Virus record (IMG/VR): IMGVR_UViG_3300018080_000003
Location: 64,001-128,000 of that record
Direction: 5' to 3' (one strand)
Origin: a virus
Length of the DNA stretch: 64,000 nucleotides
Shown here: positions 7,297 through 41,101 of the stretch, piece after piece
Numbering within the stretch: the first letter of the stretch is position 1
Layout: each line of letters opens with the position of its first letter
The notes under the pieces: model-generated
The model's input: only the letters and a program-made list of their open reading frames with translations
Database searches by the model: none
Told to the model about the DNA's origin: nothing
Made by a program: the position numbers and the translations under genes

Positions 7297-7302
7297 GAAC
7301 GC

Positions 7303-11104: not shown

Positions 11105-11124
11105 TTGTTGTTCCCCTTTCTTAG

Positions 11125-19969: not shown

Positions 19970-20080
19970 GCTTGTTCCCTTTCTTCTTCGCGTCTTGAAT
20001 CGAGGCTCGTCCTCCAGGATTGGAGAGGAGGACAGGTCGCACAGAAGACGAGCCCCGATTCGAGGCGCGAAGCCTCTGGT

Positions 20081-20110
20081 ATTGTTCGTTACCGCTGTTA
20101 CTAGTGTCAA
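20081..20110 (-). promoter_or_regulatory. Promoter TTGACA-18-AACAAT with GTAAC-N4-GTAAC in the spacer
   Basis: Read directly on the - strand. Confidence 0.6.
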
Positions 20111-21429: not shown

Positions 21430-21506
21430 GTTGTCCTCCTTTGGTTCACGAATCGTCACCGAGCACGGTCCCGAAGGACCGAGCCCGAGAACGCGCCGTG
21501 AAGCGC

Positions 21507-22130: not shown

Positions 22131-22204
22131 GGTTGTTGTCCTCCTCTCAGCTCGCGTACGCGTGCACGCGAGCTGAGAGAAGGGCAGCAAGCTGCCCCTG
22201 CCCG
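22131..22204 (-). repeat. Cassette-junction element R1 (two hairpins plus RBS)
   Basis: GGGCAG-CTTG-CTGCCC, long stem, AGGAGGACAACAACC-ATG. Confidence 0.85.
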
Positions 22205-22249
22205 TCATTCCCAGACGGGCATGTCGTTTTCATCCCAGTGCCAGTCCAT
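22205..22249 (-). CDS. 14-aa micropeptide MDWHWDENDMPVWE
   Basis: AGGAGG RBS 5 nt before ATG; fills the space between upstream stop and R1. Confidence 0.5.
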   Translation of the reverse strand: MDWHWDENDMPVWE

Positions 22250-22258
22250 GGTCTCCTC

Positions 22259-22648
22259 CTAGAAATTGAAGTCGTAGTACTCGCTGCGCTTGCCGAGCAC
22301 CACGGTTCCCCCGCGTTGCTTGGTCGGCGTGCCTACGTGCTTGTAGATGTAGCCCTCGGCGTTCGGCCGCTTGCGGCGCGTGACGACCAGACGCTCACCG
22401 TCCGGGTTGCGTTCGTAGCGGTACCGCTGCGTGCCACTGGTGTGGCCCGCGAAACCTCCCGGACTGAACTGCAGCGCATCGGGCTCTCCCGAGCCATGTC
22501 CGTTCAGCAGGATGGCGCGGTCGCGCTGGAGCACGAGCTTGCGCCCGTTCTCCTTCACCTCGATGACAGTGAATGCCTGGCGATCGCTGTAGCAGTACAG
22601 CGTCGCGCCCATGCCGACCTCTGGTCGGACTTCCGTTTCGGTGTTCAT
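22259..22648 (-). CDS. Phage hypothetical protein
   Basis: PEVGMGAT...SDRQAFTVI...EYYDFNF; strong RBS in R2. Confidence 0.75.
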   Translation of the reverse strand: MNTETEVRPEVGMGATLYCYSDRQAFTVIEVKENGRKLVLQRDRAILLNGHGSGEPDALQFSPGGFAGHTSGTQRYRYERNPDGERLVVTRRKRPNAEGYIYKHVGTPTKQRGGTVVLGKRSEYYDFNF

Positions 22649-22719
22649 GTTGTTGTCCTCCTCTCTAGGCACATGTCGTGCATGTGCCCAGAGACGAGGG
22701 CAGCAAGCTGCCCCGCGGC
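22649..22719 (-). repeat. Cassette-junction element R2
   Basis: 22644-22713 is the exact reverse complement of 25527-25596. Confidence 0.9.
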
Positions 22720-23454
22720 TCAGTGAGCCGCAATCCAAACCGACTTGGCCCCCGACGCGTTGCCGCGGCAGAGCCCGCAGGTGGCGCACGTAGCGCGACC
22801 CGAGACCGCCGGACAAGACACCTCACCCTTGGCCGGAGCCGCATCGCGGTCCTCGTCAGCCCGGAAGTAGCGCCAGCCCGCGGCCCGCGCCTCGGTCGCA
22901 TCCGCCGGACTGTCGCAGCTGGCCATGAGCCATGCCGCAAGCTCCGGGCGCGAACGCCACGAGTGAGTGTAGCCGGTCCAAGAACCCGCCGCGTCGGCCA
23001 GCTCCGCTACCAGCTCCACTGGCAGCGCAGCCGGGTCACCGTACGCCCCAAAGCGAAGCGCCTTACCGCGCAGACGCGACAGCGCCCGAACCTTGTTGGT
23101 CCCGCGGCTGTAGGTCGACGCCCACACGCTACGTGGCGCCTGAAAGGCGCGCTTGGCGACGTAGCACATGGTGAGACCGTTCTCCCGGGCCACCGAAGGG
23201 CGCCGAGGACAGTCGCCGCAGATCGCAGCGTCCTCGCCCGTTTTGATCGCCTCATGCGGCGCGACGTCGGCAGGAAGGATCCACAGCTGGACCATGTGGC
23301 CCGTCTTAGTATTCTTGCTGTCGGCGTCGAGACCCGTCAGGACCGCGACGATCGGCTCGCCGTTGAGCCGCGACGGTCCGCGCCAGATCACCTCAGACCG
23401 AGGCGTCCGCTTTCGGATCACGTCGCGCTTGGCGCGAATGTTGATCAATTGCAT
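22720..23454 (-). CDS. Cys-rich phage protein (gp88/DUF7227-like, possibly Fe-S binding)
   Basis: NTKTG, CGDCP..CY, LRFGAYGDP, GYTHSW, CPA...CATCGLC. Confidence 0.65.
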   Translation of the reverse strand: MQLINIRAKRDVIRKRTPRSEVIWRGPSRLNGEPIVAVLTGLDADSKNTKTGHMVQLWILPADVAPHEAIKTGEDAAICGDCPRRPSVARENGLTMCYVAKRAFQAPRSVWASTYSRGTNKVRALSRLRGKALRFGAYGDPAALPVELVAELADAAGSWTGYTHSWRSRPELAAWLMASCDSPADATEARAAGWRYFRADEDRDAAPAKGEVSCPAVSGRATCATCGLCRGNASGAKSVWIAAH

Positions 23455-23527
23455 GTTGTTGTCCTCCACTCTGCGCGCATGCGTCACATGCACGCAGAGG
23501 GGAGAGCAGCAAAGCTGCCCAGACGGC
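23455..23527 (-). repeat. Cassette-junction element R3
   Basis: GGGCAGCTTTGCTGCTC, long stem, GGAGGACAACAAC-ATG. Confidence 0.8.
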
Positions 23528-23962
23528 TCACTGCTCGCGCAGCACCGTCATCGCATCCTCGTCGAGGCCCGCGAGGAATTCGTCGACCTTGTCCACGGTC
23601 GCGACGCACGCCTCGTAGATGCGCTCTGCGCGTCGCGAGTCCGTGTCGTACCCAAACTCCGCACAGAAGTCCTCGAAAGACTCGCAGTAGCGAGCCGCGT
23701 CCGCGTCGGACATCAGGCTGTGAAGCACGTCCGCCGCTTTGGGTTCGTGCTGAAACGCCGGACCCATGTGGAAGCTGGTGGTCAGCGTCCGCATGGCAGG
23801 CTTGCTGAAGTGAGGGCCCGGTCCGGGCCAGCTCAGCGTGACCGTCCAGCTCGTAGACCCAGCCGGCATGTCGCTCGGGGTGACGTCCACGCAGCCCATG
23901 ACGGACTGCGTGCGGATCCCAAGCTTTTTGCAGAGCTTGTCTGCGTCAGTGAGATTGTTCAT
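23528..23962 (-). CDS. Phage hypothetical protein
   Basis: ADVLHSLMSDA...SFEDFCAEFGYDTDSRRAERIY; strong RBS. Confidence 0.75.
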   Translation of the reverse strand: MNNLTDADKLCKKLGIRTQSVMGCVDVTPSDMPAGSTSWTVTLSWPGPGPHFSKPAMRTLTTSFHMGPAFQHEPKAADVLHSLMSDADAARYCESFEDFCAEFGYDTDSRRAERIYEACVATVDKVDEFLAGLDEDAMTVLREQ

Positions 23963-24039
23963 GATTGTTGTCCTCCTGCGGAGCCCCGTTGCGCACGGAG
24001 CCCCGCAGGAGAGCAGCAAACGCTACTCTCGCGTCGCGG
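23963..24039 (-). repeat. Cassette-junction element R4
   Basis: GAGAGTAGCGTTTGCTGCTCTC, long stem, AGGAGGACAACAATC-ATG. Confidence 0.75.
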
Positions 24040-24297
24040 TCAGGCCGCGTCCTCGTCGGCGACCATCAGCACCACGTGGTGCCGCGACCCGCCGTCGGTG
24101 GTCCCGCAGCAGTCGCACGAGCGCCACGAGAACTCCTCGTCGCGCTCCGCGTCGCCGTTGCAGAGCCATCCTTCCTGCGAGAGCGCATCCAGCCCCTCGG
24201 CTACCTCGCGCTCGCGCTCGTCGGTGATGTCATCCACGTAGCCGTGCGCAATCGTGTGCACACAGTCCACGCAAACCTCTAGGTCGTGAGTTTGCAT
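24040..24297 (-). CDS. Small acidic Zn-binding phage protein
   Basis: CVDC...FSWRSCDCCG...GSRH; AGGAGG RBS. Confidence 0.7.
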   Translation of the reverse strand: MQTHDLEVCVDCVHTIAHGYVDDITDEREREVAEGLDALSQEGWLCNGDAERDEEFSWRSCDCCGTTDGGSRHHVVLMVADEDAA

Positions 24298-24589
24298 ATC
24301 TGTCCTCCTGTCGCCCACTAGGGCAACGCTGACCCCCGTTGCGCTCTGCAGCGCCCCGGGCCGTCGTTCCACCCCCTGCCCCACCGCTGCACCCCGATGC
24401 CCCTGGCCTGTGAAGCGTGACGCTAATAGTAATTAGCGTCACGTATAACATGGTACGTTACGGTTACTGAAATATCGTCACGCACCACACAACAAGTAAA
24501 ACGGGGGTCAGCGGTGGGGCAGGGGGTGACCGGCAGGGTCGAGGCACAACGGGGTGCCGCGATGGTACAGCCGGTGAGAGGACATACAG
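24298..24589. promoter_or_regulatory. Symmetric divergent control hub
   Basis: 20-bp perfect inverted repeat 24370-24389 / 24509-24528; palindrome 24416-24443; AT-rich core; strand switch. Confidence 0.75.
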
Positions 24590-24996
24590 ATGACCAAGCT
24601 ACTTACTAAGAGCATCGAGCGATGGCGCGCTACGGCGAGTCAGCGTCGCTTGCACGGCGGTGCGACCGTCACGCGGTTCTTCGTCTGCGAAGCGGACGGG
24701 GAGCGCCACGGCGAATTCGTCGGTTATGGCCGAACGCCTGGCGACCGTAAGAGCTATGCCATGGCTGCCGCCCGCAAAGCGTGGGGGCTGTCATGATGCG
24801 GCTCTGCTACTACCCAGCGAACGTGGCTTGGGGGTTCGTCTTTGGCGACACCCCGATCCGCATGGGCGACGGGCCGCTGCTCTACAGCGGGAAGAACGCC
24901 AAGGCGAGGGCCAAGGCGGACGCGGCGCGGCAGGGCCTGACGGTCGTGCTCGGACGCGTGGTTCCCGCGGGGCCTAACCGCGACGCGGCTCGCTGA
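24590..24996 (+). other. Two small hypothetical CDS (24590-24796, 24793-24996)
   Basis: GAGGA RBS; ATGA coupling. Confidence 0.6.
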
Positions 24997-25069
24997 GCCG
25001 TTCGGGCAGCTTGCTGCCCTGCTTTCAGCTCGCATGCCAGACATGCGGGCTGAAAGGAGGACAACAACC
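24997..25069 (+). repeat. Cassette-junction element R5
   Basis: Covaries with R1; GGGCAGCTTGCTGCCC at 25004-25019. Confidence 0.85.
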
Positions 25070-25519
25070 ATGAAAACTATCGAGCTGAAACAAGACACGA
25101 TTCTCGTGTCGGCAACGACGCCCCTCGGAAGCCCGATCCTCACTGAGGACGACGGCATGGGCCCGCTCTGGGCCTGGAGCGACAACCCCTACGGTGGCGT
25201 CTCTGCCATCGTTCGGGCGCAGTCCTACGAGAAGGCTCTGGAGATCGTTTACGATCTCCTGCCGACGATCCCGGAAGACGAGGTGCACGAGGCCTATGGC
25301 TTCGACTGCGAGGGCGAGTTCCAAGCGGCCATCTCGCGGGGCGAGCAGCCGGAGCTGATCGAAGGCTACCACGACCAAGCCAACAGGAGCGGCACGGGAA
25401 TTGTCTCCGTCGACCACTGCGAGCGCATGTGGAAGCTGGACCACGAAAACGCAAAGTATGCGGTCCGGCTGAAGGTGCGTCACTTGGACGACGTTCTTCT
25501 CGACGACTTGTTCGATTGA
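25070..25519 (+). CDS. Hypothetical acidic protein
   Basis: Bounded by R5 and R6. Confidence 0.7.
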   Translation: MKTIELKQDTILVSATTPLGSPILTEDDGMGPLWAWSDNPYGGVSAIVRAQSYEKALEIVYDLLPTIPEDEVHEAYGFDCEGEFQAAISRGEQPELIEGYHDQANRSGTGIVSVDHCERMWKLDHENAKYAVRLKVRHLDDVLLDDLFD

Positions 25520-25591
25520 GATGTCAGGGCAGCTTGCTGCCCTCGTCTCTGGGCACATGCACGACATGTGCCTAGAGAGGAGGACAACAAC
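25520..25591 (+). repeat. Cassette-junction element R6
   Basis: Identical to R2 over 70 bp, inverted. Confidence 0.9.
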
Positions 25592-26440
25592 ATGAAGTAT
25601 GCGACAAAACGCTTGCTCGATTCCGTCTGGACCGTGGCATTCACGGTCACGAAGGATGGCAAGGCAACGATCCACGGCTACAGCCGTGACTGCCAGCTGG
25701 GTTACGACCTGGAGGGCGATCTTCCGGTGTGCCGGCTCATCGAGGGTCCAGGCCGTGAGGTAAAGGCGCTCGACGTCAAGCTCGCGACCGAAGCGGGCTC
25801 GCGTTCGACCTTGTATCAGGTGTCGAACCCTCGGCACGTATTCAGCTACGGCGAGGTACAGGTATGACGACCACCAGGCGTGCACGGCGCTTCGCGAACC
25901 AATACGGGTTCGGCTCCGATCTTCGAAAGCTCAAGCGGCCGGCTCGGCGGCGCGAGCGCCGCAACATCAACCAGGCGATCCGACGCGGCGACTACGATGC
26001 GGCGATGCGCCCCCTGACAGAGAGGTACGTGGCATGAACAAGAACACGGAGAAAGCCGCCAGGTTTCATATCCGCTGCTGCCTGCGACGTGGGCGCAGCA
26101 AAAGCCAGGCCTACAACCAGCTGACGCGAGCGTTCGGCTATGGTCCGGACATCGGTGCACTCATCGACGATGAGTACGAGAAAGCGAAAGGGGACGTGGC
26201 ATGAATCTGAACGGCAACATCAAGCATGGCCGCTTCGGCGGCGACGTGTTGGCGGCTACGCGCTGGGAGAAGAGGGAAGGCATGCGAAAGAGTCGTGTCG
26301 TCCTGATCCAGATCGCCAGCGAGTGGTGTACAGCCATCCACTGCGAGGGGGATTATGAGTGGCTGTACGGCAAGTACTTCGTGACCCCGGAAGCGGCGTG
26401 GGAGAGCTTCACGGAGCGGGCGCGAGACTTGCTCTCGTGA
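25592..26440 (+). other. Four small coupled CDS (25592-25867, 25864-26037, 26034-26204, 26201-26440)
   Basis: ATGA overlaps; the two middle ORFs are under 60 aa and both end GTGGCATGA. Confidence 0.6.
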
Positions 26441-26512
26441 GGCGATAAGACAGCAGGGATGCTGTCTTCCTTTCGGTGCCTGGCATGGGTCAGGCTTCGA
26501 AAGGAGGACAAC
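26441..26512 (+). repeat. Cassette-junction element R7 (diverged)
   Basis: AAGACAGCA-GGGA-TGCTGTCTT, CCTTTCG...CGAAAGG stem, AGGAGGACAAC-ATG. Confidence 0.65.
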
Positions 26513-27174
26513 ATGAACACGTTCAACATCAAGACGGACGAGCACGGCGATCAGACCGTCGAGATCCGAAACGAGCAGGGCGACGTGGTGGCTGAGATCA
26601 TCGCGGTGCCCGTCAGCAAAGATGGCATGAGCATCGACGTTCGGCCGATGGTTCACGCCAGGGTGCAGAACATCGTTTTCGGTGTCGATGAGATGGATCG
26701 CATGAGCGACCGCTTCGTGTACAACACCAAGAACCACAACGGCAACATCAACGATGTTTGCCTCCCCTTCGTGTGCGTGGAGGTCAACCCGTCATGAGAC
26801 AGCTACCGGCAAACCTTCAGGGAAAGCTCATCGAGAGCTACTACGACGGGGGCGAGACCCCGCTCGACTACAACCACCCCGACTTCGACGCGACGCGCGT
26901 CGCGACCGCCATCGTGCGGCACGCCTACGCGATGGGCATCGAGGAGGGGCGAGACCGCGCCGAAGGTCGCTACCCGATGGTTAACGGGAGGATGGGTGCG
27001 CGAGTAAAGCATCCTGTGGGGGGAGAAGAGGTACACGCACAAGACGCGATCGAAGACCTTGATGGCATCCTTTGTGTGATCCTCAGCCATCTGGTCGGTC
27101 GTATGCGGTACACGGAGATGGTCATCGCGCGGGCTCACCAGGAGCTAGAGCGGGCGGTCGTCAAAGAAGCCTGA
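26513..27174 (+). other. Two hypothetical CDS (26513-26797, 26794-27174)
   Basis: RBS and ATGA coupling. Confidence 0.6.
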
Positions 27175-27273
27175 GAGGGAAGCGCCTTGCTGGCGCCCCT
27201 CGGGGCGCACGAAAGTTCAATCCAATTGAACGTTCGTGCGGCCCGAGGTGCACGAGCACCCAAGGAGACAAGC

Positions 27274-27662
<389 letters not shown>

Positions 27663-27666
<4 letters not shown>

Positions 27667-29758
27667 ACGGCTCTCCCATCTCTGTGGGCAGCAAGGTGCA
27701 CGTCGGCGAGCCCTACTCGGACGAGTACGACGAGGGCACCGTCGTCGAGCGTGAAGGCGACTGTCTCCTGGTCTTCTGGTCGCGCTGCGGCGAGGAGTAC
27801 TGGGAGGCAGAGGACGTGCTGAACCACGGTCACCCTGGCTGCTGGCCGGAGGTGCCGATCGCTGAGCGCGCGAGCTGAGCTGAGTTGAGCGTGCAGACTT
27901 GAGCGGCCCTCAGGCCGCCGCCGCGCCCCTTGGGGCGCCGTGTCCACTCTCCGTCCTCCGGGACGGGGCGTGGCCACGGTGCATCAGGCATCGACAGGAG
28001 GACGACATGGAACGACATCAGATCAACAACGAGGACCACGACCGCCAGGCGCTCGAAGCCTGTGCGGCATCCCACGAGCAGTTTCTCCATGAGCTGGGCG
28101 CCTTCATGGGCATGCTCAAGGAAGATGCCGAGGCCAAGGACCTCGACCACACCGACGTCTTTCGGCTCATCGACGAGGCGGCGAAGATCCTGGGTCCGAA
28201 CACCCGGCTCGATCAGCACGTCCAGTGCACGCAGGAGCTGATCCGAAACCTCGCGGAGGCCGGGCGCTCGCACCGCATCGCCTGGGTTCGCCGCGGGCTG
28301 CAGACCGCTTACAACGGCGCCAAGCGGCACCGCGACTACCTGAGAGGCGAGCTTTGAGCTGACCCTTCCTCGCTAGGGCCTGAGGAGCTATCTTCTCGGG
28401 CCCCTGCGAGGGCGCGTGAGCCCAACAGAGGAGAACCAAAGATGATCAGAAGGAAGGCAAGCACGGTGCAGCAGTCACAGCGCGAGCGCGAGAAGGCGCG
28501 GGCGTATTGGAACACGCTGATGCCTCAGGACAAGGAAGCGCTCGCGGACGCGATGGTGTTCGGCGAGAACCTGGTCGAGGCCGGGTTCTTCGAGCGGCTT
28601 CCGAGCGGCATCTTCCAGGATGAGCTGGGCGAGCTGATGGTTCAGCGAGAGATCGACTTCATCCCCCGCGCATGAGCGTGGGTCGAAAGGGGACAGACAT
28701 GAACGACGACAAGGCAGGAAAGATCGCGCTGCTCGCGGCGGAGAACGCGGCGGAAGGCTTCATCTACGGCATGGTGCAACATGCAGCGGAGGCCATCAAC
28801 AAGCTGGCGGAGGATCACTCAGTGAGACTCACCGACGCGAAGATCCGACTCAGTTACGGCCGCCGTCGCGGCATGAACGTGAGCTACGGCTGGCGCGCGG
28901 AGATCGAAAAGGGCGCCTTCGACGTGGATGAGGGCGCCGTCTACGCGTTGCGCGACATCGCGGAGAACGGTCGGAGCTGGGAGTCGGACGGCGCCGTGAG
29001 GGCGGTGGAAACGATGATCTCCTGGATGGGAGAGGTCTTCCGCGCTGGATCTCGGCGCCCGTCGTGGGAGGACTCAAAGTGAGCTACAAGAGCCTCAGCG
29101 ACGCGCCCTGGTGCCAGGCCCTGAACGACTGGATCGAATCCCAGAACGCTCGGGTGCTCTGGCGCGAGCTGAAGACGGACCGGGAGGTCAGCTGCTACGA
29201 GGCGAAGGGTAAGATCTTCGTGGTCGTCGCCTACGCCCACGGCTGGGAGCTGCTCATTCCTGCGTCCGCAGACAACGACGTCAAGAAGACGCTGGAGGCC
29301 GCGGAGGCCTACCTCAACGCACACCACGAAGGAGAAAACTGATGCCATTCATCGTAGGCAAAGAACTGCGCGCTGGAGCGCGCCTGACCATCTCAGCACC
29401 GCAGGGGGGAGGCGAGAGTAACCCTGGAATGACCATCTCCGTCTCAGACGACGCTTCTCTGACGGAGGCTTTGGAGATCCAAATCAGCCACGAGGACCTC
29501 ATGCGGGCGCTGACCGGCCACGGCTATATCCGATGCCAGGCCACCTGGCGCGTGTCCAAGCTCGGGCTCAAGCGCGAGCACAAGGAAGAGAAAGGTGTGA
29601 CCGAGGAGAACCTTCACACCTTTGAAGTCGATGGCTGGAAGGGCCGGAAGGAAGACCTCAAGAACTTCCATCGCAGAACCTACGACAAGAAGAGCGGGGA
29701 GTACACCGCTCGCGTTGGCTTCGAGCGCTGGGTTCCGATCGAGGACGAGGATGTATGA
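27663..29758 (+). other. Six hypothetical CDS (27663-27878, 28007-28357, 28442-28675, 28699-29082, 29079-29342, 29342-29758)
   Basis: Consecutive + strand ORFs with RBS. Confidence 0.6.
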
Positions 29759-29814
29759 GCCTCGGTTCTTCCCTCGGCTGGGGGACGTCAAGCTCATCCA
29801 GGAAGGCAAGAGAG

Positions 29815-29844
29815 TTGACTCAGACTCGTAACAGGCGTTACAAC
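29815..29844 (+). promoter_or_regulatory. Promoter TTGACT-18-TACAAC with GTAAC-N4-GTTAC site
   Basis: GTAACaggcGTTAC at 29828-29841. Confidence 0.6.
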
Positions 29845-29867
29845 AGACATCGAAAGGGGAACAACAC

Positions 29868-31070
29868 ATGACTGCCAAGCTCAAGGCTGTGGAAGAACAG
29901 CCCAAGACCAACCCACTGCACGACAAGGTCGTGTCCATCCGCCGCGCCCTTGAGGGCGCCATGCTGGAGCGCGAGGACGCGATCGAAGCGCTCATGCTCG
30001 CGTTCGTGACGCAGGAGCACGTCGTCTTCGAGGGGCCGCCCGGCACGGGCAAGAGCTACTTCGTCGATGCGCTCTTCTCGTGCATGGAGGCCGACAACCG
30101 CTACGTGCGGCGGCTCATCCACAAGTTCATGACCCCGACCGAGTTAATCGGCGGGATGGACCTGAAGCACTTCCAGGAGCACGGCCGGGTGCGCACGGTC
30201 ATCGAGCGCGGCCCGGCTACGGCGGAGGCGGTGTTCCTGGATGAGATCTTCAAAGCGAACGGCGCGTGCCTCAACTCCCTACTCAGCCTGCTCAACGAGC
30301 GGCTGTTCATGGACCAGGAGCGAGGGACCATCGAGGTGCCCCTGCGCATGTGCGCGGCGGCCTCCAACGAATTCCCCGAGGACAAGAGCCTCGCGGCGCT
30401 GTACGACCGGTTCCTGTTCCGCTGCCAGGTGAGCTTCCTGCGGCCCGAAAACCGCAAGCGGCTGCTCATGCGCAAGGCTGGCCAGGACAAGCGGGCGCAG
30501 GCCTTCGAGCCGCCCGTTCAGCTCACTACCGACGAGTGGGATCAGATCGCCGCCGAGGCCGACGAGGTCACCATCCCCGAGGCCGTCATCGACGCCATCC
30601 AGAGCTTGGAGCACAAGCTCTTTCACGAGCACGGCCTTACCAGCTCCGACCGGCGCTTCGTTCAAGCCCTGCGCGCCATCAAGGCCGCTGCCTGGCTCGA
30701 TGGGGACGACGAGGCCGACGTCAGCCACATCGAGGCCCTTCGCTTCGTGCTCTGGGACACCCCCGAGCAGCGGGAGAAGGTCGAGGACGCCATCGCAGCC
30801 ATGGACCAGGGTGAGACCAAGGCGCTCATCGACGCCATGGACAACGCCCTGCGCGCCTTCCACAGCCGCCCCACCGAGAACGCGGCCCTCTACGAGGCCA
30901 TCCCGCAGATCCTCGCAGGCATCAAGGCTGCCGCCGAGCAGGCCCGCGAAGCGGTCACCTCCGGCCGGCTCTCGCGCAAAAACGTCGACAAGATCAAGCG
31001 CCGCGGCGCTGAGGTCGCCGAAGCGCACAAGGAACTCATCAAGCTCATGCAGTCTGGGGTGGAGTTCTGA
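29868..31070 (+). CDS. MoxR/RavA-family AAA+ ATPase
   Basis: GPPGTGKS Walker A, FLDEIFKAN Walker B, AASNE, ALYDRF, SDRR. Confidence 0.9.
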   Translation: MTAKLKAVEEQPKTNPLHDKVVSIRRALEGAMLEREDAIEALMLAFVTQEHVVFEGPPGTGKSYFVDALFSCMEADNRYVRRLIHKFMTPTELIGGMDLKHFQEHGRVRTVIERGPATAEAVFLDEIFKANGACLNSLLSLLNERLFMDQERGTIEVPLRMCAAASNEFPEDKSLAALYDRFLFRCQVSFLRPENRKRLLMRKAGQDKRAQAFEPPVQLTTDEWDQIAAEADEVTIPEAVIDAIQSLEHKLFHEHGLTSSDRRFVQALRAIKAAAWLDGDDEADVSHIEALRFVLWDTPEQREKVEDAIAAMDQGETKALIDAMDNALRAFHSRPTENAALYEAIPQILAGIKAAAEQAREAVTSGRLSRKNVDKIKRRGAEVAEAHKELIKLMQSGVEF

Positions 31071-31074
31071 GGTC

Positions 31075-31449
31075 ATGACCTACACCCACCAAGTCCCCAG
31101 CTACAAGCATGGACCCACGGCCAAGGCGCTCATCGCGCAAGGCTGGGCCCTGCACGTCGTGGAGACCTACAGCAGCAAGAACTACACGGACCTTCTCATC
31201 CGGATCATCCCCGCCGCTGAGACCCTCGCCGGTCTCGCCGCCGATGAGGGCATCCGCATGCTCAAGCTCGATCGCTACGACATCAATGTCCGCGTCCGCA
31301 TGGACGAGTCCGCGCCTCCCAGCATCGACGATGCCGTCGAGTATGCCTCCAGGTGCTTCGCCAAGAGCATCCACAACACCCTCGGCCGCTACGTCGAGCG
31401 CCTTCAGTCCGTCCTCAGCCGTGTCCCCGTCCCTCAGGAGAAGTCATGA
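31075..31449 (+). CDS. Hypothetical protein
   Basis: Between ATPase and VWA genes, coupled to the latter. Confidence 0.55.
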   Translation: MTYTHQVPSYKHGPTAKALIAQGWALHVVETYSSKNYTDLLIRIIPAAETLAGLAADEGIRMLKLDRYDINVRVRMDESAPPSIDDAVEYASRCFAKSIHNTLGRYVERLQSVLSRVPVPQEKS

Positions 31450-32573
31450 GCATCGAAACATCCTCTGCCTGGAAGGCTGCCACTGGCGCCTTCAGTCCAG
31501 ATCCCGGCTCTTGGGCCGAAGCGTTCATGGACACGATGCCTCAGCAGTACGCTTCCCTGCTCGCGAGAGGTGGCCCGGCCCTGGACTGCGCCGTCAAGCG
31601 GCACAACGAAGCGAAGACCAACATGTTCTCCCAAGGTCACCGAAGCCCCTTCCACATGCGAGAGACCTGCCGCGAAGCTTGGAGACGCTTCCAGGAAGAA
31701 GCAGAGCGGCGTGAGTCTCTCGAATTCGGCCTCGGCTTCGACCAGTCCGACAGCTGGGACCACAGTTTCCGTGCCGAGCTGCCCCAGAAACTGCGACCCG
31801 CCAAGGTCTACGACATCGCCCGGCTCGCCGGCCGGCTGGTCGTCGCGCTGCGTGGAGAGAAGGCAAAGAAGGTCTCTTCTGTACCCGAGGAGGTCTACGA
31901 CGTCGAGCTGGGCGGTGACCCCTCCCGTCTGCTCACCAGCGAACTGATGCACCTCGGGCAACCCACCGAGCTGATGCTCCTCAACCGCATCAACGAGCAG
32001 CGCGCCCTGCAGTACAAGCTGCGCGGAGAAGCAGCCGCCAAGCGCGGACCGCTGATCATCGCCATCGACGAGTCGGGCTCGATGGGCGGAAGCGGCTTCA
32101 AGCGCGGCGTCTGGGCCAAGGCTGCCGCTGTGGCGCTCACCCGTCTGGCCTGGGAGGACGATCGGCCCGTCATCTGGGTCCACTGGTCGACCACCGTCAG
32201 CAGCACGGAGATGCCCAAGCCCGACAAAGACAAGCTCGCCTACGCCATCCGGCACTTCTACGGCGGAGGTAACGACTGCGCAAAGGCGCTTTCCCGAGCA
32301 GGCAAGCTTGTCTGCCGGCTCCGTGAGGCTGGCCATCCAGGAGGAGACGTCATTCTCATCACCGACGGGGTCGAGAAGTGGGGCGAAGAAATCGAGCACG
32401 CCATCGACAGCATCGAAGACAGTGACGCGCGGCTCTGGACCATCGGCATCGAGGTCGACTGTCGCATTGAGGCAGACGCACCCATCCGCGCCCGCGCCGC
32501 GGCCTACACGGCCATCAAAGAGGGCGGTCTTAGCCAGGCTGACCTCGGAAGCGCGAAGGGAGCGGTGCTGTGA
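31446..32573 (+). CDS. VWA-domain protein (ViaA-like partner of MoxR ATPase)
   Basis: MIDAS IAIDESGSM, GGGND, LITDG. Confidence 0.85.
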   Translation: MSIETSSAWKAATGAFSPDPGSWAEAFMDTMPQQYASLLARGGPALDCAVKRHNEAKTNMFSQGHRSPFHMRETCREAWRRFQEEAERRESLEFGLGFDQSDSWDHSFRAELPQKLRPAKVYDIARLAGRLVVALRGEKAKKVSSVPEEVYDVELGGDPSRLLTSELMHLGQPTELMLLNRINEQRALQYKLRGEAAAKRGPLIIAIDESGSMGGSGFKRGVWAKAAAVALTRLAWEDDRPVIWVHWSTTVSSTEMPKPDKDKLAYAIRHFYGGGNDCAKALSRAGKLVCRLREAGHPGGDVILITDGVEKWGEEIEHAIDSIEDSDARLWTIGIEVDCRIEADAPIRARAAAYTAIKEGGLSQADLGSAKGAVL

Positions 32574-34232
32574 GCCAGCCGCTCGAACTCGGACGAGTCT
32601 GCTTCACCAGGCACCGTACGCAAGAAACAAACTCAGATCCAGAAGTTGCATCCCCACCAAAGCAAGTCTCCGGTTGCCAGCCTTGGGCCCTGGACCTCGA
32701 CGCCGGCTTTCAGACGGTCATCATCGAAGGCGAGTGCTGGGTCGTCGTCAGATGGATCGCCTGGAGATCTGAGGAAAAACAATGAAAATGAAGAAGCTTG
32801 AACCCACGTTCGAAAAGAAACTCACCATCCCTTACGGTCAGCACGACGTCCAGTACGACTACCAGAAAGACGTCCTCTGGCTCCGACTGAGGGATGGCCA
32901 CAACGTCATGCTTGGGTCCCTTTCTGTCTTCAAGGGCAGGGTCGAAGGGATCCTCTCTGACATCGAGAAGCACCGATGAGGCCCTGGTACGAGAACTTGA
33001 GCAAGGGCGAGATGCTCTTGTGGGGAGGATCCGAGGTGTTCGTCATCGAGCCGTGGAACGGCTCCTACCTTCGGGTCTGGGGCCTTTGCTTCAGCGAACG
33101 CGGGCCCATGCGCTTCGATGTGAACGAGCTGGAACTCGGATGCGAGCCCATGGTCGACGACAACAAGCGGCGCGCCGTCCAGCGGGTGATCCTCGAAGGC
33201 GGACGCCTCACGCTTCCCGAGGGCAGCGTCGGGCCCGACGTCACCAAGGAACACGCCTACTCCGGATGGTCCAAAGACCATCTTTCGAACAAGCACTTCA
33301 ACAAGGCCGACGAGGCCGCATCGTTCCTCATCCCATGAGCAAACTCTTCACCCCCGTCGAAGCCATCGCCATCATGCTCCTCGTCGGAGCCATGGCCATG
33401 CAGTCGGGACGAGAGCCCGAGGATGCCCTCGCAGGCATCTTCTACGTCTTCTCCGGCATCCTCGTCGGCATGCGTTGCAGCGAAGAAGGACACCTATGAG
33501 TAAAAACTCCCCTGACGACGACAGCTACTACGTGGCTGCGAACCAAGAGGTCACTGACGCCATCACAGACGTGTACTGGCACCATGAAGAACTCATCCGC
33601 AAGTGGGAACGCGTCATGAAAGCCGAAGAGACCCTGGCCCACTACCACAAGACCCCCGACGCCGAGCGTCAGATCGCTACCGCCGGAGCTGCCACAGCCA
33701 AGCAAACCCTGTGCGTACTCCGAGCGCTCATCCACGAGAACGACCGATGAAGCGCCGCCCCTTCGACGCCTTCGACTTCATCCCGGACGACTACTTGAAT
33801 CCAAAAGAAACCATCATGAAGGTCACACTCCAGTTCCACCACACCGAAGACGCCGCTCCGCCCCCAGACAAGGCGCTCGTGCTCCTCGAAGCCAGTGCCC
33901 TTTGTCAAAAAGGCGAGGAGCCCAAACGTGTCTTCGAAGAGATGATGCTCGGACGTCGAGTCGACATGGACGATGGCACCTGGGGCTTTGCGCTCGAAGG
34001 CTGTGAACCTCAGGACCCAGAAGACTTCTACGCCTGGGCCGAGCTTCCCGCCATGCCAGCGCCGCGGCCTACCCCGACGGTCGATGATTACGAGAAGGCC
34101 GTTTTGGATCTCCTCGTCAAGTACGAGGAGGGCACGACAGATGATGCATCCTTGGTTCGCTCCGTTGGCGAGCTGTACAACCGTTTCCCTTCGCTCCGCA
34201 TGCGAGCACGGCGAGAGGCGGCGAGGCGATGA
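32570..34232 (+). other. Six hypothetical CDS (32570-32785, 32782-32979, 32976-33338, 33335-33499, 33496-33750, 33747-34232)
   Basis: Chain of 4-nt overlaps. Confidence 0.6.
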
Positions 34233-34504
34233 TCCCTGGACCCGGTCAGAAAGGCTACATCGGCAGCCTTCAGGCGGAGATCCTATCGGCCATACGAGAG
34301 AAGGGCGAAGCCCACGGGATGCTCATCGCTGACATCATCGACATGGACAAAAACGAGGTCTACCCGCCGCTTCGACGCCTGCTCAAGCGCGGCCTCATCG
34401 ACCACAAGCCCCCCTTCTACGCCCCTGAGTCCCGAGGCGTACCCCGCAAGGTTTACTTTCTCACCGAAAAGGGACGGGCGGCGCTAGAACAGCTCGATGT
34501 CTGA
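34229..34504 (+). CDS. PadR-like winged-helix protein
   Basis: ILSAI...HGMLI...VYPPLRRL...GLI...RKVYFLTEKGRAAL. Confidence 0.8.
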   Translation: MIPGPGQKGYIGSLQAEILSAIREKGEAHGMLIADIIDMDKNEVYPPLRRLLKRGLIDHKPPFYAPESRGVPRKVYFLTEKGRAALEQLDV

Positions 34505-35261
34505 CGCCCTGACAGCGCTCCTGGACGCTCACAGTGGCTGGAACAGGCCCGAGCCCCGCAAGTCGAAGCCAAGAAAGCGGCTCAAGACCTACAAGACCCA
34601 CTGCCGATTTCAGAGCGTGCGACGTGGGAAGACAGACCCCCGGTACTGCCACACCTGGGTGCTCTACATGCCCTGCGCCAAGGAGCACGTCAGCCACGCG
34701 GCCGAGCCTCCCGAGGACATCGCCTGCGTCAAAGCGGTCAGCTGCGACCTGAGGAAAGAATGAACAAGAAGCTCCGGGAAAGCATCAACGAGTGCCTTCG
34801 ATGCCCAGACCACTGCGAGTCACTTGCCGACTACATGCACGACATGGGCAATGATGCTCGCAGATGGCTGAAGCAAGCCGAGCGCGCGGGTGACGAGAAA
34901 GAGATCGAGTCCTGCAAGAAGCTCGTTGAAGAAAACGACCTCTGCGAGCGGCTCCTCAGGGCGCTCGTCAAGGCCAGTATAGAGAACTGAAATGAAGGAC
35001 ATTGCAGACACCAACGCGACCCCCGAGTGGTACGACGACATCTATCGAGCAGGTGTGCTCGAAAAAGTCTCCACCATCGCCGCTGAGTACGAACTCACGC
35101 TCGAAGAGCTGAAGACGATGGCTCCCACGCTCTATGGCTACGTCAACGGCTCCCCGAAGTACTACGGCAAGGCGCTCAGGGAGCTGTGCGCCCTCGTCGC
35201 CTGCGCCAAGGTACTCAAGCAGGAGCTTGAAGAGTACGGGCCTCACATCAAAGAGTATTGA
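34497..35261 (+). other. Three hypothetical CDS (34497-34763, 34760-34990, 34992-35261)
   Basis: Coupled ORFs. Confidence 0.55.
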
Positions 35262-35293
35262 CTTGTTCACGTAACCATGGTTACGTCTAAAAT
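35258..35293 (+). promoter_or_regulatory. Promoter region with ACGTAAC-CATG-GTTACGT palindrome
   Basis: TTGACT 35258-35263, 7 nt, then GTAACcatgGTTAC 35271-35284, same geometry as 29815. Confidence 0.6.
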
Positions 35294-35360
35294 GCCGCAA
35301 GGACGAAACGCTCTGCTGCAGAGCGTCTGAGGGTATGCACCCTCACTGATGAGTCCCGGC
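35294..35360 (+). ncRNA. Hammerhead ribozyme, type II
   Basis: GGAC-GAAA-stem III (CGCTCTG/CAGAGCG)-TC-stem I (TGAGGGT/ACCCTCA)-CTGATGA-GTCC; complete core; GUC cleavage triplet ending at 35327. Confidence 0.92.
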
Positions 35361-35551
35361 TCACGCGACGGAAGCTTTGACCCTCTTCGGAGGCGAGCTG
35401 AATCGCGGTCCTGTCTGCTTCTCCGGGTAGTGGCAGACGAGGGCGACGTGAGGGCGAGAGCATAACTACCTGAGAGCCTTGGTTCCAGCTCTCTCCAGGT
35501 GGGCCCAGTAATTGGAACCCTGGGCGCTGCGTTTAGCTAGCGCGGGCCCAG
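35360..35551 (+). ncRNA. Unclassified structured RNA
   Basis: CTCACG/CGTGAG multibranch with a UUCG loop; two hairpins with complementary loops GGTTCCA/TGGAACC. Confidence 0.55.
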
Positions 35552-35555
35552 CTTT

Positions 35556-35627
35556 GCATCTGTCGCTCAGAGGATGAGCAGCGGCCTTCTAAGCCGACCC
35601 ACGCAGGTTCGAATCCTGCCAGATGCG
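35556..35627 (+). tRNA. tRNA-Arg(TCT)
   Basis: GCATCTG/CAGATGC acceptor, loop CTTCTAA, GCAGGTTCGAATCCTGC. Confidence 0.9.
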
Positions 35628-35647
35628 CTCAAGAAAGGGGACCTCAA

Positions 35648-38600
35648 TTGAATCAAGAAGAGCAAGAAGGATGGTGGCTGACCGCTGAACAGTTTGATCC
35701 TGTCGACTGTGGCCACGTCGTCCATCCCTGGAACGGAGAGAGCATCGGAATCCTCTGGGAAGAGAAGGGCGACATCGAGTTCTTCTACAGAGAAGACCTG
35801 TCGCGCATCGAGCACTTGCAAGTCGACGAACCAACCAAGCTGCTGCGGGCTCTGAAAACCATCATGAAGCTCGGAGGAGAGCACACCTCCGTTCGCATCC
35901 ACTTCTTCGATCTTCGTCCGCCAAGAGGAAAAGTCGCAGAGCTGAAAAGCGACGCTGTCAGCAGTCACGTGCGAACGCGTGATGGCAGGAAGGTTTACCA
36001 AGATATCGGGCGCGCTGCCGTGCGCTTCGTCTGCGAAGTCCTTCAGGAGAGAAAGCGTGAGTGAAGACGCACGCAAGGCTCACCAGGCGAGGGTCGAAGC
36101 CGAGAAGTGCCTTCGAAGGGCACATTCCAACCTGACATCCGCCATCGACAGCGCCGAGAACGACAAGCATAGCTCCGCGCTTGAGGATGCCTCTTGGGCG
36201 CTCCAATACCTGGGAGCGGCCGTGATGCACCTAGGCAACGCCATTTACCACCAGACCAAGTGGGAATGCGCCCCGTACGGAGACTGAGAATGAAAATCGA
36301 CAAGCCGACCCCAGAAGACGTACTCCACACCCTCATGTGGGCTCGTGCCCTCATCAAGCGTGGATGGACAAAGCACAAGTGCACCAACCGAAAAGCAATC
36401 CGTAGCGACAAGGTCGGAACGAGATACTGCGCCATGGGCGCTATCTACGCGACAACGGATGATTACCAGCTGCAGCAAGCTGCAAGAATGGCGCTCGGCC
36501 GAGCCTTGAAGGTGCCAGGCATAGCTCACTTCAACGACCACCGAGACACGAAGAAACGTGATGTCATCAACCTCTATGACCGCGCGATCGAGTGCCTGAG
36601 CCAGCGCATCAAGCCGAAGAAGAACTCATGAAAAAGTTGCGAGAAAAGGATTTTTCAACAGCATACGTCGTCGCGACTCTCAACCTCTCTTTGGAGCCTC
36701 CTGTCGTCATCGATGTCAGATGCTACGGCGAGAGCGCTGAGAGGCTAACCATGAGGAGTTCGCGCTATTGCTATGCGACTCTGTTCAGCACGCAGGCCAA
36801 GTCCTTCGAGCAAGCATGCCAGCTGGCGCTCGACACGGCCAAGGCTGCTCCTCACCTCAAATGGGCTGCGTCCTTCTTGGAGAACTCATGAGCAAAGTCA
36901 CCGATCTCAAAGGAGCCCTCGGGCTCGTAAAAATCTGGAACCACGGACACATCCTCGTCTACCCCTCGACCAATCGAGGCTACGTCTGCATCACACAAAG
37001 GGGGCACAAAGACCGCAACGGCAAACTCATGAAGCCCGGCACCGTGGGTCCTTCTGATGGCTTCTTTGGCATGGGTGCCAAGGCGTTCGAGCCGAAGACT
37101 TTCCGCCACCCCTTGGTGGGGCCGGGGGACCTAGACGAGAAGAACAAGCATCTGTTCGATCTCTACGGAGGTCGAACCGCTTCTGTTGAAGAGCAACACG
37201 CGTTCGCTCAGAGGAGGCTCTGATGCCGCTCATCGACCCAAAAAACCAGCCCCCCATCCCTAAATGGTGGACCAACGTCAAAGTTGGGACGAAGATCGTC
37301 GCCGGAGCCGGCCGCGGTATCAGAGCCATCGTCATCCAGCCTTGGAACGACGTGTTCCTCGGTTGCGCAAAGCAGGTGTGGAGGACTCCTGCTGCAGCGG
37401 GAGCGAATCTACTTCAGCCTCGATGGGAGATGTTTGCCCTTCGAGAAATTGAACTCTTCGACCAGTTCTGGTTGCCGCTAGACACTGCAGAAGAGCTTCT
37501 CACGTCGTTCAGAAGTTGGATCGAGGCTCATGACCCCGACGGCTTCTTCGAGCCGGAAGCAAGGAAGACACAATGACACGTTCTGGATACTCCGACGACT
37601 TTGGCTGCGGTGGCCCTGAAGAGATGTGGGCCAACATCCGCTACCGAGGAGCCGTCAAGTCAGCTATCCGTGGCAAGCGCGGCCAGCGCCTGCTCCGCAA
37701 CCTTCGTGACGCCCTCGACGCGATGCCCGTCAAAGAACTGATCGAGATGGAGATGCAGGCCCCCTCAGGGGCCTACTGCGCCCTAGGGGCGCTCGCTGCG
37801 CATGAGGGGCGCGACCTGAAGGAGATGCGCTTCGACGATGAGACCGACGCTGAGCGCATCGCGGAGGATTTCGACGTCGCGACCTCTCTGATCCGAGAGA
37901 TCGTTTTCGAGAACGACGACGACTTCGGACCCTACACCAAGGACACGGCCGAGGTCCGAAAGCGGCGCTGGAAGCGCGTGCGGAGCTGGGTCGAGAGTCA
38001 GATCCGAGAGAGGCCATGACCGACCACCGCGTCCCGCTGTTCAACCACCAGCCCGTGCAGAAGTTCCACGTCAGCAACAAGGGCGAGTACGGCATCTTCC
38101 TCCTCGATGGCAACACGCTCATCATCTACAGCAGCTTCGGGAGCTACGGCCATCACTGGAGCCATCCGGGGGCAGACATCCGGAAGTTCCTCCTCAAGGT
38201 CGAGAAGAGCTACTTGCTGAGCAAGCTCTGTCCCTCCAACTGGTACACCTACTCTCGCACCGACTACGACAAGACCTTCCAGCGCGTGCGTGAAGAGATC
38301 CTTCGCGACCGCCGCGACGGCGGTCTGACCAAGGAGCAAGCGAGGGAGGAGTGGAAGCTCTCTGAGCAGATCCTAGCGCACCACGAAGGCTACCTCTGGG
38401 AGTGGTACGAGCACACGAGGCTGCAAGATGCGCACGAGCTGACGGTCATGCAGCCCTACCCCGGACAGCTCGAAGGTCTCTACCGAGATCTCTGGCCCGG
38501 GTTCAGAGCCATGCTCCAAGAAGACCTAAACCCCAAGCAGTACCTCGCATGAGGTTCCGCATCAGAGGGGCACGCTGGTTCAAAATGCTCCAGCAGAAGT

Positions 38601-41101
38601 CTAAGGTCGTCGCGAAGAAGATAGGGCTCTCGTACCCCAGCGATGACCCCGACATCATGGCCAAGGTCCACGCAGAAGCTGAGCGCCAAATGACGACTCG
38701 ACTGACCGAAGCTTTCAGGAAGGAGACCCAGTGAAGATCAACTACCGCAACATGCTCGAAAAACTTGCCATCCAAGCAAGGCGGGCTCTCGCCACGGCCA
38801 AGCCTGATCCTGCCGAAGAGTTTCGGTGCGAAGAATTCAAGCGCCTCCACCAGATGAGCGAGAAGGTGCTCGGAGAGCTTCAGTCTGAAGGCAACGCACC
38901 AGACGAATGGTTCGAGAAGCTGAAGCCGCACGATGCGATCTACGACAACCACGAGAAGCAGGTCGTCTTCGCTCTCACCAACTACGACCACAACGAAGGC
39001 GGCATCTATGTGGAGTGGCGCGAGGGCAAGAAAGTCCTGCAGACCTTCATCCCCAAGAAGATCCTCAAAGAGGACATGGTCAAATGGAATCCGTAGACTT
39101 CGAGGCCTACAACCGATTCCTCGCCGCACGAGGCAGGTACCTGCGGGAGAGCGGCTGGACCCCATGGATCGATGGGAACCATCTAAACCGCCTTCAGAGC
39201 GCAGAGGGGGCGCCCATCGTGCTGTGGAAGCCACCGCCGTGGATCCATGCCGACCGGCCCTACATGGACACCGAGACTGCAATATCTTGGCAGACCAACG
39301 AACACGCCATCGAACTGAAGCACCTCGGCCGCGCCATCGCCGAGCGCGAGCGCGAGCGCGCCCGGAAACAAAAGAAGAAGTGCCTTGTGTCCTTGGAGGA
39401 GAGATGAGCCTAAAGCCTGGAGTCGTGCTCCGCACGCGGAAGATCGACACCTACTCTGACGTCCCGGAAGGAGAGGGAGAGAAAGAAGAAGATGAGTGAT
39501 CAAGAATACGAGGCCCTCAAGAGCCTACAGGCTGCTTCCAGGGCGCTGTCTCGGTGCGCCGAGCGCGTCAGGCTCTACGACTTGACACTCCAGAGCGCGC
39601 GCTACGCCATTTCGTCCGACCTCGATGAGATCGACGCCCACATCCAAGATGTACGAGAGAGGGTAGAAGACGATGAGTGACGAAACCCAGCCCCTCCTCC
39701 GCGTCGATGCCGTCAACGACACGCTCGCCGCCTACCGGGTCGACGTCGACCAAGGAGTCACACCAAGCTCCTGGGCACGCATTCTCGCTGGATCCGTTGA
39801 AGCCATCGTCTCCGAAACCTTCCGCGTCGGCGCCCATCCTCCCCACGCGACCCCTGAGCAGATGAAAGCCCTCATCGCGGCACACTTCGTCTCCGAAATG
39901 GTCAACCCTCAACACGCCGTCGCCCCCAACTTCGCCGTCATCGACGGCGGAAAGAGCGAAGAGTCATGAAGCCTGCCGTCATGAAGGCGCCCTACTTCTT
40001 CTCCACCCGCGATGTGCAAGACTGGCTCAAGGAGAAGGCAGAAGAGCCTGGCGGGGCCGAGTGTCCCTGCTGTGGCCAGCTCGTCAAAACGTACCGGCGC
40101 TCCATCAGTCCAAAGGCAGCCCGATGGCTGCTGTGGCTGTGCAAATACTACGACGGCATCGTCGTGGGGCAGCCAGACAGACCCGTTGACGAGATTTGGA
40201 TCAGCACCACCCACTACCCCGTCAAGGGTGGCGACTACGCCAAGCTCCGCCACTGGGGGCTCGTACGCAAGAAGCCGAAGGACGTGAGCGATAAGAGCCG
40301 CAAGGCCGGCATGTGGCAGCCCACGGGCCTCGGCATCCGCTTTGCGAAGGGACAGGAAAGCGTCCCGAAGTACTGCTACATGCAGCTCGGCCAAGTCATC
40401 TCCAAGTCTGTCGAAACCATCCACATCGGAGACATTCTCAAAGGAGAAGTCTTCCAGTCCCCTGGCCCATGAAGAGAATCTACCAAGCCGAGTTCGACCA
40501 CCTGGACCGTCAGATCCAAAGCCTACTCCTCAAGGCAAGCCAGAGCGGCGACCGAGATGGGCCATCCATCAGCGCCGAGCTGCGGATGATGGTCTACGAC
40601 CTCGCCAAGACGCAGAAGCGGATGCTCAAACTGATGGAGCGCATGGCATGATCATCTACCTCGCCGTCAGGGGCAGCCGTGCCCAGGGCGACAAGCTCTA
40701 CAACCAGCTCCTCTTCGAGACGTTGCTCGTCACCGTCGACCTGGAGAAGGCGATCATCGTCGCTCGTGACTACGCCAAGAGATACGGGATGAACGACATG
40801 AGCCCCCTGCTGCCCAGAGAAGGCAAGATTCGAGCGATTTGGAGCGGAGAAGAAGGCCAGACCTGGGTCGAACGTCACTTGGTCAAAGACCTCATCATCA
40901 ACCTGGACGACATCGATGACCCTTGAGACGCTCATCGGGATCCAAACCGGCCTCGGCATCTACCTCGGCGTCCAGGCGCTCTACTGGAACTGGCGCCACA
41001 GACGACTGAAAGGAGAGCTGGCGAAGACGTCCGGCGTCCTGGAAGAGCTGAACACTCGACTGGAAAAGATGAACCAACATCTTCGAAAGAAAAAGAAATG
41101 A
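35648..41101 (+). other. Run of about 17 small hypothetical CDS, including 36290-36631 (DUF6197-like), 37573-38019, 38016-38552, 39966-40472 (CPCC Zn ribbon)
   Basis: Near-continuous chain of overlapping ORFs; functions not assignable by eye. Confidence 0.6.

Follow-up and report, generated by a model that had tools for sequence, protein, structure and literature searches.

In the window analyzed here, the 64,000-nt stretch covering bases 64001-128000 of the complete 143,727-bp phage genome IMGVR_UViG_3300018080_000003 (IMG/VR), a type II hammerhead ribozyme stands at the head of a 195-nt non-coding RNA that runs up to a gene for tRNA-Arg. This middle RNA is under purifying selection and is probably functional, as it is kept far better than the silent sites of the neighboring genes in a related phage. 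The explanation we favor, tentatively and with slightly less than even confidence, is that of a ribozyme-headed discrete RNA: the hammerhead would supply a 5′-OH end, termination or RNase P cleavage by the tRNA would supply the 3′ end, and the RNA itself would be the selected product. That the ribozyme cuts in vivo, where the 3′ end falls, and that the RNA is released and acts in trans are all inferred. The original prediction for this DNA had proposed a promoter-driven transcript in which ribozyme and tRNA serve as processing brackets for an unknown functional RNA; the order of its elements and its predicted product (35328-35555, 228 nt) stand as they were given.

The evidence for selection comes from a single relative. 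The open reading frame (ORF) upstream of the ribozyme has one homologue, 81% identical (P0003), on an 82.9-kb Logan contig (locus L274), and the phage represented by this contig is syntenic with the window and 70-94% identical over aligned stretches, with ~80% identity in the flanking genes. L274 holds the same block in the same order: hammerhead (61.5 bits), middle RNA, and tRNA-Arg(UCU). The tRNA is identical at 73/73 positions and the hammerhead at 64/67, with all three changes inside the 3-nt loop of stem III (a confinement with a chance of 2e-5, assuming independent changes), and the middle RNA is identical at 176/195 positions (90.3%), the identity being spread evenly along its length. 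In the flanking ORFs, second codon positions are 87% identical and third codon positions 63% (185/294; Fisher p = 3e-12 against the middle RNA). The possibility raised with the original prediction, that the middle segment might be unconserved, is thus contradicted by the comparison. Nor is the block merely younger than its flanks, because presumably free positions inside it (those of the stem III loop and those of the spacer that are not part of the palindrome described below) have changed at 7 of 17 sites, which differs from the middle RNA at p = 0.0016.

The block occupies a 386-nt gene-free gap (35262-35647) bordered on both sides by + strand ORFs, each belonging to a long head-to-tail run of small ORFs. 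The phage genome has 123-bp terminal repeats, a G+C content of 60%, and three tRNA genes only. We give nearly even weight to the view that the whole gap is one RNA module carried within a rightward polycistronic transcript. The features of the gap and its borders, all on the + strand, are as follows:

34992-35261, +: upstream ORF of 89 aa, last in a run of small ORFs; stop codon 35259-35261
35266-35293, +: promoter-like hexamers with a 16-nt spacer, 9/12 matches; probably not a conserved promoter
35269-35286, +: perfect 18-nt palindrome; folds as RNA into a hairpin (7 bp, 4-nt loop) immediately 5′ of the ribozyme
35294-35360, +: type II hammerhead ribozyme; minimal form 35300-35356
35327-35328, +: predicted self-cleavage site, as judged from where the GUC triplet stands between stems III and I
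35361-35555, +: conserved non-coding RNA, 195 nt (200 nt in L274); no ORF, no Rfam match
35364-35407, +: domain 1, predicted three-tier hairpin with a UUCG loop; outer helix 35364-35368/35403-35407, pair probabilities 0.82-0.93
35408-35444, +: domain 2, predicted interrupted 12-bp hairpin; pair probabilities 0.95-0.99, z = -2.5 with boundaries picked post hoc
35466-35502, +: domain 3, predicted hairpin whose loop 35481-35487 is complementary to 35513-35519
35503-35525, +: alternative hairpin, 35503-35508/35520-35525, from a reading of the sequence and the RNAalifold choice on two copies
35520-35551, +: predicted terminal G+C-rich hairpin, pair probabilities 0.88-0.96, ending 4 nt before the tRNA
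35556-35628, +: tRNA-Arg, anticodon UCU (ARAGORN; Rfam, 56.9 bits); CCA not encoded
35631-36064, +: ribosome-binding stretch (35631-35640) followed by an ORF of 138 aa with a TTG start (35648-36064)

The palindrome, the hammerhead, the non-coding middle, and the tRNA-Arg of the original prediction were each found where it had placed them, and the block offers a well-bounded system of ~370 nt with two natural variants.

The hammerhead ribozyme and its 5′ side

The segment 35294-35360 is a complete and, judging from its sequence, genuine type II hammerhead for which cleavage is predicted. The 5′ strand of stem II consists of 35294-35297 and 35301-35304 with a 3-nt bulge between them, and its 3′ strand is 35353-35360, so that a 4-bp GGAC/GUCC core is followed past the bulge by a 4-bp extension. 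The core sequences GAAA (35305-35308) and CUGAUGA (35346-35352) are joined by stem III (35308-35315/35319-35326; 8 bp, 3-nt loop), the cleavage triplet GUC ending at 35327, and stem I (35328-35333/35340-35345; 6-7 bp), and the core is completed by the A15.1-U16.1 pair and a non-G at the cleavage site. Stems I and III are capped by loops and stem II is open, which is the type II topology. A strict descriptor matched this site alone in the phage genome and nothing in 100 simulated genomes, and no second hammerhead was found in the 143.7 kb. The active ribozyme fold is the minimum-energy fold of 35262-35560, and the stems of the isolated ribozyme have pair probabilities of 0.77-1.0.

The original claim of a complete type II hammerhead is therefore upheld by the intact core and stems, by the single descriptor match, and by the retention of 64 of 67 positions in L274. 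A decayed, inactive hammerhead in an arrangement that plays no role in processing seems to us very improbable. Its score against Rfam RF02276 is 25.3 bits (local alignment to model positions 4-56 of 66), below the gathering cut-off of 37; in long sequence contexts, alternative pairings rival stem II; and loop I, in our own reading, forms at most 3 pairs with the tail just 3′ of stem II, short of the pseudoknot of at least 4 bp that most, though not all, type II hammerheads carry (PMC3088659). A 5-nt complement to loop I does occur 100 nt downstream (35460-35464) and is kept in L274, a match of a size expected by chance. Against decay, no core position has been lost, stems I to III are complete, and the changes in L274 altered loop nucleotides only. 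The cut-off carries little information in this instance, because 13 loci that each hold a pattern-defined, covarying relative of this ribozyme likewise gave no Hammerhead_II match at gathering. A model built from 90 such viral siblings scores the window site at 61 bits, which is partly circular because the 23 fixed bases of the search pattern were taken from the window site.

Immediately upstream lies the perfect 18-nt palindrome, which is real and unique in the genome, flanked by the promoter-like hexamers. The promoter part of the original prediction finds no support. One such site occurs in the surrounding 20 kb against a mean of 2.9 in shuffles, so that the match is not above chance; all five L274 substitutions in 35262-35293 fall within the two hexamers (p = 0.004); and no promoter-like site was found in L274. 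A separate transcription unit, driven by a sigma-70-type promoter with an operator and starting at ~35299, at the first base of the ribozyme, is accordingly a reading that we consider improbable, a judgment made independently of those on the other readings. In its favor, the hexamers match at 9/12 positions with a 16-nt spacer in an AT-richer dip, the palindrome is positioned between them, a gene for a PadR-family protein, perhaps the regulator of such an operator, lies ~0.8 kb upstream (34229-34504), and a start at 35299-35300 would keep the A that precedes GGAC here and in 98% of 132 unique siblings. Besides the lack of conservation, three observations count against it: (i) the 16-nt core of the palindrome is identical in L274 and its outermost pair, A-U in the window, is G.U there, so that RNA pairing is kept and DNA symmetry is broken, as would be expected of an RNA hairpin sooner than of a DNA operator; (ii) with a start at ~35299, the stem II extension is missing and the active fold has a modeled share of 0.11 instead of 0.63; and (iii) the siblings show no positional enrichment of −10 elements. 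Since such a start would lower the modeled share of the active fold, we favor transcription by read-through from upstream.

A third, more distant relative (L275) has a homologue of the upstream ORF and lacks both hammerhead and tRNA, and the block thus comes and goes as a unit. In L274, a 1.4-kb insertion (6202-7604) carrying a GNAT acetyltransferase gene and three small ORFs sits exactly at the left edge of the block, between positions corresponding to 35225 and 35235 of the window, and parts the block from the ORF homologue. The final 27 nt of the upstream ORF, which precede the gap, travel with the block in L274, and these shared 27 nt at the edge of the insertion mark a recombination junction.

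Structure of the middle RNA and its 3′ end

No credible ORF was found in 35361-35555, the AT skew of this segment is negative, opposite to that of the surrounding coding DNA, and single-sequence folding yields four hairpin domains with pair probabilities of 0.8-0.99, in line with the non-coding stems of the original prediction. Rfam 15 gave no match for the segment at E <= 10, its only matches in the block being the hammerhead and the tRNA. Several identities for the middle RNA were considered and rejected: a second, decayed hammerhead (none found with filters off), a repeat (no further copy in the phage genome, and none in 119 hammerhead loci), a small ORF (no credible one), the hammerhead-linked knotted RNA (its signature is absent from 35328-35560, and an nhmmer profile of 10 members gave no hit at E <= 10 across the whole genome), and a part of a Y RNA system (no TROVE protein). 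The phage encodes neither an RtcB ligase nor a CCA-adding enzyme.

The substitutions between window and L274 provide some support for the predicted fold, which is supported rather than established by two sequences. The loop of domain 3 (35481-35487) can pair with 35513-35519, which lies in the loop of the alternative hairpin, and in this loop-loop contact C35486-G35514 has become U-A in L274, a two-sided change that keeps the pair, and A35487-U35513 has become G.U. In domain 1, substitutions at 35401 and 35402 lengthen the outer helix by two pairs in L274, the tetraloop and one bulge are altered, and one terminal pair is lost; in domain 2, one internal C-G pair has become C.A; and in the last hairpin, an inserted C pairs with a bulged G. 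Taken over the middle RNA, there are two G.U replacements and three newly created pairs, about eight changes fall in loops, bulges, and linkers, and all six pairs of the alternative hairpin are unchanged. The bases 35520-35525 are contested between the alternative hairpin (35503-35525) and the terminal hairpin (35520-35551), which are mutually exclusive. The product RNA of L274 folds with z = -3.0.

In L274, the last hairpin is a perfect 13-bp stem with nine G-C pairs, followed by eight U that reach the first base of the tRNA, which in its sequence is a textbook intrinsic-terminator layout. Termination may therefore serve as the 3′ bracket no less than RNase P. The tRNA-Arg(UCU), which the original prediction had also placed after the middle segment and which ARAGORN and Rfam both detected, forms a cloverleaf whose D, anticodon, and T arms are standard and whose anticodon loop has 7 nt.

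From these elements, the favored course of events would be the following. The hammerhead would fold upon synthesis and cut between C35327 and U35328; by established hammerhead chemistry, C35327 would bear a 2′,3′-cyclic phosphate and U35328 a 5′-OH. The upstream mRNA would be left with a 3′ end consisting of two hairpins (the palindrome hairpin and stem III) and the cyclic phosphate, and these hairpins might protect that end after the cut. The 5′-OH would begin a discrete RNA of ~228 nt, whose 3′ end would be set within a few bases of position +1 of the tRNA, in L274 through termination at the last hairpin, predicted to be strong there and weak in the window, or alternatively by RNase P. The released middle RNA would be the selected product, a phage small RNA, and the tRNA and the next ORF would be expressed through read-through, on which the tRNA would depend because the hairpin and the tRNA lie too close together for a promoter to fit between them. 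The bracket idea of the original prediction is supported in part: the pieces and their conservation bear it out, release and function are predicted, the promoter finds no support, and a terminator may take the place of RNase P at the 3′ side.

Several observations weigh against this explanation. The last hairpin of the window is followed by CUUU only, with no real U tract, and a terminator scan found none there; the same want of promoter room ties the tRNA to passage through the middle RNA. The folding energy of the window copy is no better than that of shuffles (z = -0.45 to -1.2), and 7-nt complementary pairs such as that of the loop-loop contact are present in 72% of shuffled segments and hence at chance level. 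Two substitutions disrupt predicted pairs, and substituted sites are weakly enriched at unpaired positions (p = 0.02-0.25, depending on the folded context), in a comparison made on two independent copies. Finally, conservation on its own fits a leader that acts in cis equally well.

Such a cis-acting leader or attenuator, in which the middle RNA decides the read-through of polymerase into tRNA-Arg and the next ORF, is somewhat unlikely in our estimate. The hairpin at 35503-35525 would be the antiterminator, stabilized by the contact of 35481-35487, and would compete with 35520-35551. Consistent with this, the terminator-type hairpin of L274 and its eight U abut the tRNA, so that the conserved tRNA needs read-through; the two mutually exclusive hairpins share 35520-35525 and are both intact in L274; and the two-sided pair change sits in the very loop-loop contact that would favor the antiterminator. 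Against it, the short tail in the window suggests that termination may be weak here despite the conservation of the RNA, nothing points to a ligand or factor, Rfam gave no match to a riboswitch or leader family, the hammerhead is left without an explanation, and two copies are insufficient to establish a switch. A combined version, in which the 195-nt RNA is a new ribozyme-headed regulatory RNA whose kissing contact (35481-35487/35513-35519) locks the antiterminator and gates read-through, is a long shot. If true, read-through of a terminator-type hairpin into tRNA-Arg and the downstream gene would be gated, and the hammerhead would free the switch from the translated upstream mRNA, letting it fold alone.

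The surroundings of the phage's tRNA genes hold further peculiarities. The 10-mer AAGAAAGGGG has three copies only in the 143.7-kb genome, among them 35631-35640 (+) and 11113-11122 (−). Two of the copies lie 3-4 nt past the 3′ ends of tRNA-Arg and tRNA-Thr, where each forms the ribosome-binding stretch of the next ORF; these ORFs are not homologous, and AAGAAAGGGG may be a shared tRNA-trailer or translation-start signal. On the + strand at 52817-53080, just upstream of tRNA-Ile, are two tRNA-like genes missed by ARAGORN and by Rfam at gathering. Both encode a CCA. In the first, whose acceptor arms lie at 52817-52823 and ~52990-52996, the T arm is good and ~100 nt are inserted; in the second (52991-53080), the anticodon region is long and odd, and the score, 18 bits, is tRNA-Sec-like. 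The tRNA-Ile itself (53082-53161, +; anticodon AAT) has a 9-nt anticodon loop according to both ARAGORN and Rfam.

Sibling hammerheads and further copies

A pattern derived from the window ribozyme pulled more than 119 stretches from IMG/VR, and stems I and III of these siblings show strong covariation, with pairing in 98.3% of cells and with 410 double changes where shuffles give 119. Routine annotation probably overlooks this large type II subfamily, as in the 13 loci without a gathering match (among them L016, L020, and L030). The next ORF starts no more than 60 nt after the ribozyme in 101/118 type II siblings, a ribosome-binding site and start codon lie within 20 nt downstream in 81/132, and a stop codon stands at −3 in 37/132. 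No same-strand tRNA was found within 1 kb of any of 147 type II siblings, and their loci (L008-L126) hold 9 tRNAs in 1.09 Mb. Since the siblings adjoin ORFs and none of the 147 is near a same-strand tRNA, the tRNA-side context of the window hammerhead is exceptional within the type II family.

These settings bear on a plainer account, in which the middle RNA is a by-product of processing: the hammerhead would merely sever a tRNA-bearing RNA to give a 5′-OH, the 228-nt leader would be discarded, and the conservation would stem from folding constraints of ribozyme and tRNA or from a short divergence time of the block. We judge this unlikely. As plain intercistronic cutters, the siblings speak for it, as do the ordinary folding energy of the window copy and the finding that the native middle segment neither favors nor hinders the active ribozyme fold relative to shuffled versions. 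However, the 90% identity across 195 nt matches second codon positions and not silent sites, the free positions in the block have diverged, and neither the survival of a pair through a two-sided change nor the gain of pairs would be expected of a mere spacer. In addition, the tRNA-Thr of the same phage begins 2 nt after a stop codon and needs no leader.

Type I hammerheads that share the GGAC/GUCC stem II (L154-L273) have a different neighborhood. Their loci hold 151 tRNAs per 1.09 Mb, and 22 of 134 have a same-strand tRNA no more than 400 nt away. Downstream of many of them comes an RNA of ~110 nt that bears a motif and closes with a U run. In two of them, the predicted cut falls 1-2 nt ahead of the first base of a tRNA, tRNA-Tyr (L189, 8399-8442) and tRNA-Gly (L270, 10050-10092), and at these two loci the ribozyme instead of RNase P could form the 5′ end of the tRNA. 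A recurrent order in marine or estuarine phage contigs with 42% G+C (L129, 2168-2529; also L131, L133, L137, L142, and L143) is tRNA-Met, 10 nt, a type I hammerhead, an AT-rich spacer of ~130 nt with the knotted-RNA signature, and an 85-88-nt tRNA that combines a long variable arm with the anticodon TCT, which is unusual for an arginine tRNA. At L134 (445-563), a tRNA with a ~45-nt insertion (Rfam, 45.7 bits) lies ~150 nt past a type I hammerhead, and ARAGORN is silent on it.

Searches for other copies of the block had a mixed outcome: the search for homologs with the same order, which the original prediction had suggested, did yield L274, but spacing-pattern scans of IMG/VR and metagenomes added no other copy. 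The flanking proteins have no relatives in IMG/VR, and 5.8 billion proteins yielded no homologue of the downstream ORF, the other contigs carrying this ORF being identical. Conserved exact 18- and 20-mers gave chance hits only in IMG/VR and prokaryote genomes, and a pattern of hammerhead end and tRNA T-loop at the same spacing gave one chance hit in IMG/VR. In metagenomes, the same pattern found three unrelated lineages with type I or III hammerheads in tRNA clusters, along with chance hits in coding DNA; none of these matches resembles the middle RNA. The contig G001, reached through a vWA protein, was rejected as a relative, with five weak protein matches and no hammerhead. Its stretch 20001-40000 (L148) belongs to a 136.6-kb viral contig carrying a transfer-messenger RNA and ~38 tRNA genes, mostly in one island of ~11 kb, and one of these tRNAs has the anticodon CTA.

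Comparison with known systems

Type II hammerheads are known from phage intergenic regions (Perreault et al. 2011, PMC3088659), and activity in vivo has been demonstrated for some of them (PMC8782182). The window ribozyme resembles the type II class (RF02276) in its core, topology, and phage intergenic setting, and shares the GGAC/GUCC stem II and the preceding A with more than 100 siblings in IMG/VR. It differs from siblings that lie between a stop codon and a ribosome-binding site in preceding a conserved 195-nt RNA and a tRNA, and from the usual type II form in its extended and bulged stem II and in lacking the pseudoknot that usually joins loop I to the 3′ tail. Most bacterial and phage hammerheads are intergenic and release ordinary mRNA, whereas the RNA that the predicted cut would release here is itself non-coding, under purifying selection, and flanked by a terminator-type hairpin and a tRNA.

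Two further systems invite comparison. In synthetic cassettes (ribozyme-guide-ribozyme constructs, tRNA-guide arrays, the RiboJ insulator), a ribozyme sets a 5′-OH end and a tRNA recruits RNase P, which is the same logic as the bracket idea of the original prediction, but engineered; the papers searched yielded no natural counterpart that combines a type II hammerhead with a tRNA. The tRNA cluster of phage T4 gives rise to the stable species 1 and 2, structured non-tRNA RNAs that are co-transcribed and co-processed with the tRNAs; to our knowledge, these have no known function, involve no ribozyme, and bear no detectable sequence relation to the middle RNA.

Theta ribozymes, which are hepatitis delta virus-like, adjoin tRNAs of gut phages and have been proposed to process the 3′ trailer, which would save the phage a step of host processing (Kienbeck et al. 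2024, PMC10879173). Here too, a small self-cleaving ribozyme lies in cis with a phage tRNA, but it is of another class, and its cut lies 228 nt upstream of the tRNA with a conserved RNA between. In the searchable literature, which includes few subscription journals, no description was found of a natural hammerhead that precedes a phage tRNA or that stands at the head of a conserved small RNA. A similar layout is seen in the type I hammerhead-linked knotted RNAs, which share a 5′ hammerhead, a compact structured RNA, an end in a U run, and a place next to tRNA genes; they differ in topology (type I against type II) and in length (~110 nt against ~195 nt), and have no sequence or motif in common with the middle RNA. 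Together with these type I cases, the block suggests by analogy that ribozyme-headed small RNAs could be a recurring phage design, and the maturation of small RNAs by ribozymes in the neighborhood of tRNA genes may be a general one that current RNA catalogues miss.

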